DNA of 39,656 bases, from sequence record OZ035755.1. One strand, written 5' to 3'. The notes below the pieces were generated by a model. The model did not search any database. It had not been told where the DNA came from and saw only the letters and a program-made list of their open reading frames with translations. The position numbers and the translations under genes were made by a program. Position 1 is the first letter of the stretch. Each line of letters opens with the position of its first letter. The stretch comes from Kayfunavirus AN17P1. This document shows, in pieces, positions 294 to 16,677 of the stretch.

Positions 294-346
294 GTGTTAG
301 ACTCAAGGTCATTACTATATGTAGTGGCCTTTATGGTTAACACACA
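294..346 (+). promoter_or_regulatory. Conserved imperfect stem-loop, putative RNase III processing site (R18.5-like)
   Basis: Motif AGACTCAAGGTCATT...GTGGCCTTTATG with outer arms GTGTTA/TTAACAC; near-identical elements at 9451-9492 and 16631-16677; T7 has RNase III sites at the equivalent positions. Confidence 0.4.
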
Positions 347-394
347 CTACGGGCGGAGACGCTACGTGGATTCTGAGAAATGAGGAGGGCAACT

Positions 395-832
395 ATGCTC
401 GAACTTTTACGTAAAGCAATCCCGTGGCTGGTTGCAGGACTCCTGTTCTGTTCTGGCTACTGGGTGGCAGACAATAAGTGGGAGGCGAAGGTAAACAATG
501 AGTACATCACGAAACTTGAGGCACGAGAGAATCAACGGGCTGCTGTCCAAGGTGAAATCAACAAAGTGTCAGCCGAGTGGCAAGACAAGATGTCCGCGCT
601 GGAAGGCTCTACTGATAGGATTATTGCTGACCTTAACCGCGATAACAAGCGGCTGCGCGTCCGAGTCAACACCTCAGGTCTCACCGAGTCAGATGTCAGT
701 AGATGCTTCCCTAATGGTAGAGTCGAACTACACCCAGAAACTTCTAAAAGTCTTATCCGATTAACTCAGGAGGCAGACCTTAAGGAGAAGGCGCTTCAGG
801 ACACAATAAGGAGGCTCCAAGGTGTTAAGTGA
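395..832 (+). CDS. gene 18.5: i-spanin (Rz-like, T7 gp18.5 homolog)
   Basis: Translation MLELLRKAIPWLVAGLLFCSGYW... resembles T7 gp18.5 N-terminus (MLEFLRKLIPW...) as I recall it; N-terminal TM segment; SD GAGGAGG 7 nt upstream of ATG 395 (the track's ATG 380 lies inside the SD). Confidence 0.8.
   Translation: MLELLRKAIPWLVAGLLFCSGYWVADNKWEAKVNNEYITKLEARENQRAAVQGEINKVSAEWQDKMSALEGSTDRIIADLNRDNKRLRVRVNTSGLTESDVSRCFPNGRVELHPETSKSLIRLTQEADLKEKALQDTIRRLQGVK
498..764 (+). CDS. gene 18.7: o-spanin (Rz1-like lipoprotein, T7 gp18.7 homolog) embedded in +1 frame of 18.5
   Basis: 88-aa ORF wholly inside the i-spanin gene in another frame; lipobox-like LTAITSGC followed by Pro/Ser-rich region; same embedded arrangement as T7 18.5/18.7. 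Confidence 0.75.
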   Translation: MSTSRNLRHERINGLLSKVKSTKCQPSGKTRCPRWKALLIGLLLTLTAITSGCASESTPQVSPSQMSVDASLMVESNYTQKLLKVLSD

Positions 833-1259
833 TTACTACAAAGTGGACCCGGCTAGTCCATCCGGTCTGGTCTCCGTTAGGACTGGAAAGCCTGTGGGGA
901 CATTAAGTCGGATGGGATATTGGATAGTACAGACACGAAGTCTAGGCAGTAAGCGGGCCCATCGTGTGATATGGGAACTAACCAATGGTCCTATACCGCA
1001 TGGTATGCAAATAGACCACATCGACAGGAACCCTAGCAATAATACCTTAAGTAACTTACGGCTCGTTACTGCCGCTGAAAACACTTGGAATACTGGTAGC
1101 CATTATGACTCTAAGACAGGAGTGAAGTGCGTTACCCGTCACCAGAATGGTTATAGGATTCAGGTTAAACGCGGGAATGCCTATATGCGAACAACACGTC
1201 CCACTTTAGAGGAGGCTATCGCTGTCCGGGACCTAATGCTGGAGGGACTATATGTCTAA
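822..1259 (+). CDS. HNH homing endonuclease (HNH plus AP2-like DNA-binding region), 145 aa
   Basis: Motif [41 protein letters not shown] typical of phage HNH endonucleases; GTG start with SD AAGGAGG; overlaps the 3' end of 18.5 and the 5' end of terminase; T7 has no gene here. Confidence 0.8.
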
Positions 1260-14713: not shown

Positions 14714-16414
14714 ATGTCATACGATGACCAAGACGACGAGAGTGTCTTTCTGTATCACACCCAGTGTCCAGACTGTGGGTCCTCTGATGCCAATGGTGTT
14801 TACTCAGATGGACACATGTACTGCTTCTCCTGTGACCCTTCAGTCGCATGGAAGAAAGGAGACATGGAGTTGACCAAGGGATACACACCCTCAGGAGGTA
14901 GAAAGCAAGTGAGCAACCTGTTAACGTTCGGTGAGAACGCTGGACGATACGTCCCACTACCAGCCCGTAGTCTCAGCATGGAGATATGCAAGAAGTACAG
15001 CTACTGGGTGGGTAACATGGGAGGCAAGATGGTTCAGGTCGCTGATTATTACGACAGGTCCGGGACCAAGGTAGGGCAGAAAGTCCGAGACGCTGAGAAG
15101 AACTTCACGGCTATAGGTAGCGTCAAGTCTGACATGCTGTTCGGCTCTCAGCTCTGGAACGGTGGCAAGAAGATAGTCATCACCGAGGGTGAGATAGACG
15201 CTCTGTCTGTGGCTCAGGTGCAGGACGGGAAGTATCCTGTGGTCTCGCTTCCGTTAGGCTCCAAGTCTGCTAAGAAAGCGATGGCAGCGAACCTTGAGTA
15301 TCTCGACCAGTTCGAAGAGATAATCTTGATGTTCGACATGGATGAACCGGGTCGTCAGGCCATTGAGGATGCAGCTCCAGTCTTACCAGCAGGTCGGGTT
15401 AAGGTAGCATTCATCAACGGGTACAAAGACGCCAACGCTGCGCTTCAGGCCAAGGACTTCAAGGCCATCACCGATGCTATCTGGAACGCTAAACCGTTCG
15501 TCCCGGCTGGCGTGGTATCAGCGGCAAGTCTGAAGGACCGCACACGAGAGGCAATGCTTAAGGCAGAGACTGAAGGTCTCATGTTCTCGTCATGCACAAC
15601 ACTCAACGCGATGACCCTAGGTGCGCGGGCTGGTGAGCTTATCATGGTTACTTCAGGGTCAGGCATGGGTAAGTCCACCTTCGTCCGTCAGCTACTCTTA
15701 GAGTGGGGCAGACGCGGTAAGCGTGTTGGTATGGCTATGCTTGAAGAGGCTGTAGAGGAAACAGTTCAGGACCTTATGGGTCTGGACAATAACGTCAGGC
15801 TACGTCAGAGCAAGGAACTGAAGCAAGCCATCTTAGAGGATGGGCGGTTCGACGAATGGTATGACAAGCTGTTCGGAGACGATAAGTTCCACCTGTACGA
15901 TTCATTCGCAGAATCAGAGGAAGACACCTTGTTCGCTAAGTTGTCCTACATGGTGGATGGTCTCGACTGTGACGTAATACTGCTTGACCACATCTCAATC
16001 GTTGTGTCTGGAATGGAAGATAACTCAGATGAACGTAAGACCATTGACCGCATCATGACTCGTCTCAAGAAGTTTGCGAAGACGAAGGGTGTTGTTGTCG
16101 TGGTTATATGTCACCTAAAGAACCCAGAGAAAGGTAAATCGCATGAAGAAGGACGACCTGTTTCAATCACTGACCTACGTGGTTCTGGTGCTCTACGCCA
16201 ACTATCTGATACTATCATCGCACTTGAACGTAACCAGCAAGGTGATACTCCTAACGTTGTTCAGCTTCGTCTACTCAAGTGTCGCTTTACAGGTGATACT
16301 GGAGTGGCTGGACACCTTGAATACAACAAAACGACAGGGTGGCTTGAACCAATTAGCTTCACTGGCAGCAGCGGAGAAGAGGATAGCGGCTCGTGGGAAA
16401 ACAACGACTTCTAA
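14714..16414 (+). CDS. gene 4: DNA primase-helicase (T7 gp4 homolog), 566 aa
   Basis: N-terminal zinc-binding CPDCGSSD...CFSC, TOPRIM region, Walker A GSGMGKST and helicase motifs collinear with T7 gp4A as I recall it; identical length. Confidence 0.96.
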
Positions 16415-16466
16415 ATGTCAATGCCCTGAGTGCGATTGGAAGTCACCATACGGAGGACACCATTAG
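16143..16466 (+). CDS. Alternate-frame ORF overlapping the 3' end of gene 4 (T7 gene 4.2 analogue), 107 aa
   Basis: T7 carries overlapping out-of-frame genes at the 3' end of gene 4; this ORF has hydrophobic segments; support is positional only. Confidence 0.2.
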
Positions 16467-16630
16467 TGTTTAAGAAACTTAAAGCTCGATACCATCGGTT
16501 CATGTACAAATGGTGGAGCGATGAAGCAACCTGCCTGTCGAACATTCTGGGAGACCAGCGGTTCAACTCTGCGGCATGGAAGAAAGCTAACCGGAAGTTC
16601 ATGTATCACTTCTTGCGTACAGACTTCTAG
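16430..16630 (+). CDS. Hypothetical basic protein, about 54-66 aa (gene 4.3-4.7 position)
   Basis: ORF between primase-helicase and DNA polymerase; likely start is GTG 16466 with SD GGAGG 9 nt upstream (the track shows the GTG 16430 start). Confidence 0.4.
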   Translation: MRLEVTIRRTPLVFKKLKARYHRFMYKWWSDEATCLSNILGDQRFNSAAWKKANRKFMYHFLRTDF

Positions 16631-16677
16631 GTCTAGACTCAAGGTCATTCACATCGAGTGGCCTTTATGATTAGACT
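16631..16677 (+). promoter_or_regulatory. Conserved stem-loop, putative RNase III site upstream of the DNA polymerase gene
   Basis: GTCTAGACTCAAGGTCATTCACATCGAGTGGCCTTTATGATTAGAC; third member of the family at 294-346 and 9451-9492. Confidence 0.4.

Follow-up and report, generated by a model that had tools for sequence, protein, structure and literature searches.

Probable T7-type RNase III-site hairpins between gene modules of the Kayfunavirus AN17P1 genome

The genome of Kayfunavirus AN17P1 (sequence record OZ035755.1; the whole 39,656-nt stretch analysed here is called the window) carries three related hairpins between genes on its + strand. E1 (294–343), a hairpin of the R18.5 type, lies between gene 18 (30–293) and gene 18.5 (395–832). 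E2 (9445–9498), of the R1.1 type, directly follows a phage promoter and precedes gene 1.1 (9526–9705), and E3 (16630–16677), of the R4.7 type, lies between a gp4.3-like open reading frame (ORF) that ends at 16630 and gene 5, which encodes the DNA polymerase (16694–18865). An earlier reading made from the letters alone (the sequence-only reading) had put three elements before genes 18.5, 1.1 and 5; this gene context agrees with the ORFs and with the annotation of relatives, and the boundaries it gave fall within a few bases of the hairpins. We consider it about 90% probable that E1–E3 and three further early-region hairpins represent the RNase III processing signals of the T7 group in their Kayfunavirus form, cleavage being the step that we infer.

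Sequences read directly at the three places share the motif AAGGTCA-N(8–30)-GTGGCCTT, which occurs exactly three times in the window, always on the + strand (305–331, 9458–9484 and 16641–16665). Shuffled sequences give an expectation of 0.01, and none of 100 shuffles reached three, so the claim that the elements are there holds. Their common fold consists of an upper stem of 10–12 bp, an asymmetric 4/5-nt internal loop with the consensus ACUN on its 5′ side and YAUGR on its 3′ side, and a lower stem of 6–8 bp, with folding z-scores of −2.6 to −4.8. In E1, the lower stem pairs GUGUUA (294–299) with UAACAC (338–343), the upper stem has 11 bp (305–315/321–331) and the internal loop is formed by GACUC (5′ strand) and UAUGGU (3′ strand). 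The upper stem of E2 has 12 bp (9458–9469/9473–9484; z = −4.8), and that of E3 has 10 bp (AAGGUCAUUC/GAGUGGCCUU), with ACUC and UAUGA as internal-loop strands.

The sequence-only reading had called the copies near-identical, a description that is right for the core blocks TAGACTNAAGGTCAT and GTGGCCTTYATGRTTA but not over the whole length, where identity is 71–76%. It had also supposed that the differences were absorbed by G–U wobbles, which is not what we found: two U·G pairs, at stem positions 5 and 8, are common to E1, E2 and E3, and the differences are double Watson–Crick changes in the distal upper stem and the lower stem. Stem position 9 is U-A, G-C and U-A in E1, E2 and E3, respectively, and position 10 is A-U, A-U and C-G, both being double compensatory changes; the lower stem of E1 given above corresponds to GGAUUA/UAACCC in E2 and GUCUA/UAGAC in E3.

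Hairpins of this kind are textbook elements of T7 and T3 and are ordinary in this phage group. The T7 hairpins that we take to be R1.1, R4.7 and R18.5 read ACTCAAGGTCATTCGCAAGAGTGGCCTTTATGATTGACC, CCTCAAGGTCGCC...GGTGGCCTTCATGAATAC and ACTCAAGGCCACT...AGTGGTCTTTATGGATGTC. T7 R1.1 (5844–5904), R4.7 (13850–13909) and R18.5 (36813–36873) align column for column with E2/E3, E3 and E1, and sequence homology reaches further, to T7 R0.3, R0.5, R1 and R1.3 (hairpins of the same type) and to the T3 sites. The 10-bp upper stem and both internal-loop strands of E3 are identical to those of T7 R1.1, whose first 8 stem pairs and loop are also found in E1 and E2. Shared with T7 are the core ACUCAAGGUC...GUGGCCUUUAUGAUU, the architecture of upper stem, 4/5-nt loop and lower stem, the strand, and the intergenic places, which follow gene 18, the phi1.1 promoter and the gene 4 cluster. 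Unlike in T7, the terminal loops, distal stem pairs and lower-stem sequences are changed, with compensation, and the window is without a canonical R1 or R1.3 hairpin and without a gp0.7 kinase gene. R1.1, a 60-nt RNA whose internal loop is asymmetric (4/5 nt), comes from the stretch that separates T7 genes 1.0 and 1.1, and it undergoes cleavage both in vivo and in vitro (PMC6121014). Cleavage is proven in T7, whereas for the window elements it is predicted.

Annotation of such sites is uneven among reference genomes. The T7 records (NC_001604 and V01146) list promoters and no R sites, and the T3 record (NC_003298) annotates ten stem-loops as 'RNase III recognition site', including R1, R1.3, R18.5, R1.1 and R4.7. 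In T3 and in phiYeO3-12 (NC_001271), which has the same layout, R18.5 is placed between genes 18 and 18.5 as E1 is here, R1.1 overlaps the end of the phi1.1 promoter as E2 does, and R4.7 stands directly before gene 5 as E3 does; E3 directly precedes gene 5 because gene 4.7 is absent here. Both phages differ from AN17P1 in belonging to the genus Teetrevirus, in their promoter specificity and in having ten annotated sites, whereas the Kayfunavirus reference records annotate none. Cellular and lambda substrates of the same host enzyme (rRNA precursor stems, rncO, the lambda N leader and sib) likewise need about two turns of double helix (PMC3867540), but they have no sequence similarity to the phage hairpins, many are cut on both strands, and they are not repeated intercistronic cassettes. 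Rfam 15 returned no match at gathering thresholds in the whole window, and none at E ≤ 1 in positions 1–17000.

We trained a covariance model (CM) on 14 RNase III hairpins of T7 and T3 only, with no window sequence included, and scored every position on both window strands (79 kb). The annotated sites of phiYeO3-12 were recovered by this model. In the window its three top matches were E2 (9441–9504; 50.9 bits, E = 1.1e-9), E3 (16624–16684; 49.7 bits, E = 2.1e-9) and E1 (288–351; 48.7 bits, E = 3.8e-9), so that alignment, T3 annotation and CM scores agree with the equation of these positions with T7 R18.5, R1.1 and R4.7 made by the sequence-only reading. Three more matches followed, at 4832–4894 directly before gene 0.3 (44.1 bits, E = 5e-8) and, elsewhere in the early region, at 4477–4545 (27.5 bits, E = 5e-4) and 5444–5506 (26.8 bits, E = 7e-4). 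All six matches with E < 0.001 are on the + strand and between ORFs; beyond them, none on either window strand falls below E = 0.07, the next having E = 0.08. Six members of the family, not the three first counted, are thus present in the window.

Among the early members, the hairpin at 4481–4539 precedes ORF 4560–4838 and has the upper stem CAGGGUC.../...GGCCCUG; its orthologs in K1F (704–772) and in the related locus L001 (4601–4669) score 33 bits each. The R0.3-type hairpin at 4836–4888 (z = −4.1) stands directly before the gene 0.3 ORF (4919–5251) and has orthologs at K1F 1027–1089 and L001 4924–4986. The R0.5-type hairpin at 5448–5500, before a small ORF (ATG 5521), pairs GAGGUCA with UGGCCUC, G-C replacing A-U at the base of the upper stem, and resembles T7 R0.5 (GUGAUAGACUCAAGGUC...GGCCUUUAUGAUUAUCAC). 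A promoter-proximal structure at 6370–6433 contains the half-motif GGACUCAAGGUC; its fold is weak (z = −1.5) and the CM makes no call, and it was not counted as a family member. The promoter there (6366–6384) has the half-motif, read as GGACTCAAGGTC, and this weak structure behind it. Nor did the window show a canonical R1 hairpin before gene 1 or an R1.3-type site before the ligase gene (9894–11054). An R1.3-type site does occur in ~41-kb relatives whose gp1.1 is ~90% identical (second matches at ~846–916).

To follow the elements through relatives, we fetched orthologous loci via neighbouring proteins, with a better yield than a pattern scan of IMG/VR for the bare motif, which was mostly noise (CM match in 8 of the 80 loci listed, 120 having matched in all). 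An E1 ortholog follows gene 18 in all 23 Kayfunavirus-like uncultivated virus genomes (UViGs), right after the stop codon in 22; in the remaining one (L144), an insertion of ~480 nt separates the two. E3 has an ortholog shortly upstream of gene 5 in 20 of the 23; in L165, L178 and L181 another gene immediately precedes gene 5, and no site lies within 400 nt. Essentially all of 78 gp1.1-bearing loci have a CM match ~20–85 nt upstream of gene 1.1. All six positions are occupied in K1F and vB_EcoP-101118UKE1, and five in EcoDS1, so synteny is kept in these three phages and the 23 UViGs, as it is with T7 and T3. No CM match was found after gene 18 in L151–L162 (~55% gp18 identity), and the family is thus not recognisable in those more distant phages. 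A 48-nt query matched at least 447 phage records, all T7-like, ~37–41 kb in length and infecting enterobacteria and Aeromonas.

Among Kayfunavirus sequences the core hardly varies, and the distal stem and loop change by pairing-preserving substitutions and indels, as in GGUCAUUACUAUAUGUAGUGGCC, GGUCAUCUACUACAUGUAGUGGGUGGCC and GGUCAUCGUCAGGUGGCC. An alignment of 67 distinct sequences drawn from several genera has 93.9% paired cells, and double changes occur at 16 of its 19 pairs; controls with the structure slid along the alignment gave 27–48% paired cells, and none of 500 shuffles reached the observed values. For 70 distinct Kayfunavirus sequences the figures were 93.6% paired cells and 12 of 19 pairs covarying (slid controls 17–49%; 0/500 shuffles). 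Both alignments were fitted to the CM; a MAFFT/RNAalifold alignment, which was not, recovered both helices, 10 of 17 pairs covarying. The covariance check that the sequence-only reading had proposed for itself thus comes out in favour of the two-helix fold.

Several places at which homology to relatives breaks off lie at these hairpins. The homology to K1F and vB_EcoP-101118UKE1 stops at 4541 and resumes at 4837; between these points, flanked by two family hairpins that are 75% identical to each other, lies ORF 4560–4838 (92 aa), and the gap makes this gene look like a replaceable cassette. At 250–450, comparison with L128–L150 shows identity to the window shifting between ~95–100% and ~62–80% within 50–100 nt of E1, which suggests that the gene 18/18.5 boundary may be a mosaic junction.

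Such breakpoints would fit a primary role in DNA, with the elements serving as ~50-bp repeats at which T7-like phages exchange modules or as an inverted repeat bound by protein: 4541 and 4837 bracket a replaceable ORF (in comparison with K1F and L001), homology to EcoDS1 resumes at 9431, identity switches beside E1 in many UViGs, and the E3 ortholog is found with or without a fused promoter. However, conserved intergenic islands give BLAST breakpoints whatever their function. All six copies are on the transcribed strand, and the conserved U·G is a mismatch in DNA and becomes A·C on the other strand. The + strand has the more stable fold at each of the six sites, its advantage over the reverse complement being 0.5 kcal/mol for E2 and 2.7–12 kcal/mol for the remaining five. 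Conserved U·G pairs lead one to expect this of a structure working as + strand RNA. Because the compensatory changes, too, preserve RNA pairing, we rejected DNA as the main level of function and regard it as most improbable. A milder version, in which the hairpin cores, alone or as a promoter-fused cassette, would act as portable junctions for homologous module exchange besides their RNase III role, is unlikely, though less so. If true, it would explain conservation far beyond what RNase III needs and the coincidence of the breakpoints at 4541/4837, at 9431 and in the E1 region with hairpins.

The transcription context was read from the phage promoter consensus TAAACTATCACTATAGGGA, which has 11 matches, each of them on the + strand (0 expected), starting at 3115, 6366, 9432, 11292, 12257, 14643, 20660, 23484, 24493, 29281 and 36557. 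The match at 9432–9450, a phi1.1-type promoter, abuts E2, and the EcoDS1 record has a 'phi' promoter at the corresponding position; the arrangement is that of T3 R1.1 with phi1.1. Its predicted +1, G9447, falls within the E2 lower stem, so transcripts from this promoter would keep most of that stem. E1 has no promoter of its own and is carried in transcripts from the promoter at 36557; E3 likewise has none in the window and is carried in transcripts from that at 14643. In L168, L174–L177, L179, L180 and L182–L185, the E3 ortholog is fused to a phage promoter (CTATCACTGTAGGATAGACTCAAGG...; positions ~322–395). A sigma-70-like match over E3 (16648–16677) was dismissed as chance level, 18 such matches being found against 18.2 expected. 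An intrinsic terminator at 11235–11262 lies just upstream of the promoter at 11292, and together with the promoters it makes up a transcription map of the genome.

As G+C-containing intergenic hairpins on the transcribed strand, the six elements have something of Rho-independent terminators, and they might be imagined to stop or pause host or phage RNA polymerase. What sets them apart from such terminators is the internal loop, the conserved lower stem and the lack of a U tract: UAUGAUUA or UAUGGUUA follows the stems instead of a U run. A terminator scan that detects the expected early terminator at 11235–11262 flags none of the six. Moreover, essential genes (18.5/19 and gene 5) lie downstream with no promoter between hairpin and gene. 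Termination or pausing was therefore rejected as the main function, and we give it almost no credence.

Action on translation, through operators or through leader peptides that start at a conserved AUG, was weighed likewise. The AUG is indeed conserved in the 3′ loop strand, the one in E3 (16667) is in frame with gene 5, and some GenBank records call small 'hypothetical protein' ORFs over the hairpin. But no Shine–Dalgarno sequence precedes the loop AUG, the frames differ (16 codons in E1, 5 codons in E2, read-through into gene 5 in E3), the predicted cut would destroy the AUG, and the hairpins end 25–45 nt ahead of the real ribosome-binding sites and sequester none. We rejected this reading too as the main function, its chances being negligible. 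The GTG-started ORF that a mechanical search gives for gene 5 (16658–18865) begins inside E3; the real start is ATG 16694, preceded by a Shine–Dalgarno sequence. A 'hypothetical protein' or extended polymerase coding sequence is drawn over the hairpin in L001 (494–583) and in records H26–H28, H30, H31 and H33; annotators thus repeatedly miscall small ORFs and false start codons over these hairpins.

The view of E1–E3 as one family of mRNA processing elements, already taken by the sequence-only reading, is supported by homology in sequence, structure and position, and the cleavage that it implies would run as follows. Carried within long polycistronic + strand mRNAs (E2 in read-through transcripts and in those of the abutting promoter, the early sites in host-polymerase transcripts), each hairpin would form two coaxial helices of about two helical turns, broken by the 4/5-nt asymmetric internal loop. 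RNase III (rnc) is encoded by E. coli, the host of the closest relatives of AN17P1, and this enzyme would bind the quasi-duplex and cut just once, in the 3′ strand of the loop (UAU^GR), the internal loop limiting it to one phosphodiester. The upstream message (gene 18, the gene 1 region or gene 4/4.3) would then end in the stable upper hairpin, shielding it from 3′-to-5′ exonucleases. The downstream message (18.5–19, 1.1–1.3 or gene 5 onwards) would begin 25–60 nt before its ribosome-binding site with a short, unstructured, 5′-monophosphate leader. Processing at T7 R1.1 is reported also to affect translation of genes 1.1 and 1.2 (Saito and Richardson, 1981).

Alignment with T7 puts the predicted primary scissile bonds of the + strand transcripts at U334^G335 in E1 (CCUUUAU^GG; compare T7 R18.5, UUUAU^GG, 36856/36857), at U9487^G9488 in E2 (CCUUCAU^GA; compare T7 R1.1, U5887^G5888, and R4.7, CCUUCAU^GA) and at U16668^G16669 in E3 (CCUUUAU^GA, the same context as in T7 R1.1). 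The T7 cut coordinates are taken to be 890, 1468, 3138, 5887, 13892 and 36856, as reportedly given by Dunn and Studier (1983), and these six share one alignment column; a further coordinate, 6450, presumably that of R1.3, falls outside the column and was not used. The six coordinates and the E3 bond also fit the length of a known product, for R1.1[WC] yields a 28-nt upper stem-loop with a 2-nt 3′ overhang (PMC1540722). Where an internal loop is present, RNase III is confined to one phosphodiester, and the 3′ hairpin left by cleavage shields RNA from 3′–5′ exonucleases (PMC1540722; PMC3867540).

The hairpins could also act uncut, either binding RNase III without being cleaved or standing as a structural barrier to exonucleases or to RNase E scanning. 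R1.1 variants that bind yet resist cleavage exist, and one G-C pair at proximal-box position 4 can uncouple RNase III binding from cleavage (PMC1540722; PMC3867540); stable hairpins are, moreover, able to protect RNA alone. However, E3 matches T7 R1.1, an efficiently cleaved site, exactly in its upper stem and loop strands, an identity that makes binding without cleavage unlikely, and the first 8 stem pairs and the loop of R1.1 recur in E1 and E2. A 3′ hairpin, furthermore, protects only where an end is made, and no terminator follows. We therefore judge action without cleavage to be improbable.

Some observations speak against processing by RNase III or fit it poorly. The lower stem of E2 contains a single A·C mismatch (A9449/C9494), and two of the early-region members (4481–4539 and 5448–5500) score just ~27 bits. 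The core ACUCAAGGUC...GGCCUUUAUGAUU is nearly invariant across paralogs and genera, which exceeds any evident need of cleavage; since the sequence needs of RNase III are slight, this constancy leaves room for an added constraint. The early region (3300–6456) has no ORF of more than 110 aa in the ORF list, hence no T7-type gp0.7 kinase, and T7-type kinase stimulation of RNase III would be absent. The K1F and EcoDS1 reference records annotate no such sites, and the literature searched yielded no paper on the Kayfunavirus copies, none combining Kayfunavirus with RNase III, and no cleavage or end-mapping data for AN17P1 or any Kayfunavirus.

Three hairpins elsewhere in the window recall less canonical RNase III sites. 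Transcripts from the promoter at 14643 carry, right at their start, a leader hairpin at 14657–14694 (GGGAUGGGAC...GUCCUGUCCC). The sequence behind it, CUGUUCGCAUU, is similar to T7 R3.8 (CCCUUUGUUCGCAUU) and to the R3.8 annotated in T3, and the hairpin is likely a non-canonical RNase III site before gene 4 (14714–16414). The hairpin at 29255–29322 (z = −3.9) encloses the promoter at 29281–29299, just ahead of a gene starting at 29332, and consists of a perfect 12-bp inverted repeat (AAGGGCCTATAG/CTATAGGCCCTT), an internal loop and a lower stem CUUAU/AUAAG. RNase III sites R6.5 and R13, which likewise enclose promoters in T7 and T3, have this architecture; the CM makes no call here, and the hairpin could form in read-through transcripts only. 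A long hairpin at 20604–20713 (z = −2.2) encloses the promoter at 20660–20678 with an 11-bp helix (20615–20625/20692–20702) and outer pairs, and on the folding model it may be an R6.5-type site.

The gene map used here was based on ORFs and the annotation of close relatives and further includes gene 19 (1252–3018), the RNA polymerase gene (gene 1; 6456–9137) and the Ocr-like product of the gene 0.3-like ORF. With the first 20 kb of the window as query, megablast matched 1087 phage records, the best being Kayfunavirus AN24P4 (97.8% identity); the nearest relatives belong to the K1F-like coliphages (Autographiviridae, subfamily Studiervirinae). Compared with K1F and EcoDS1, positions 1–757 correspond to the gene 17.5–18.5 region of K1F, and segment 3786–3963 matches both ends (terminal repeats) of the two genomes. 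It follows that the window is complete and permuted, with the physical ends near 3786–3963; on these homologies we regard it as a complete, circularly permuted genome of a Kayfunavirus (K1F-like, T7 group).

These hairpins leave the understanding of RNase III and of T7-group gene expression unchanged. Rfam is without a model for this old and widespread element, and the present alignment could seed one. For the phage itself, the hairpins mark the likeliest cut points of long transcripts and hence the mRNA units and their protective 3′ hairpins, a transcript map that is relevant to K1F-like phages used in therapy and engineering.

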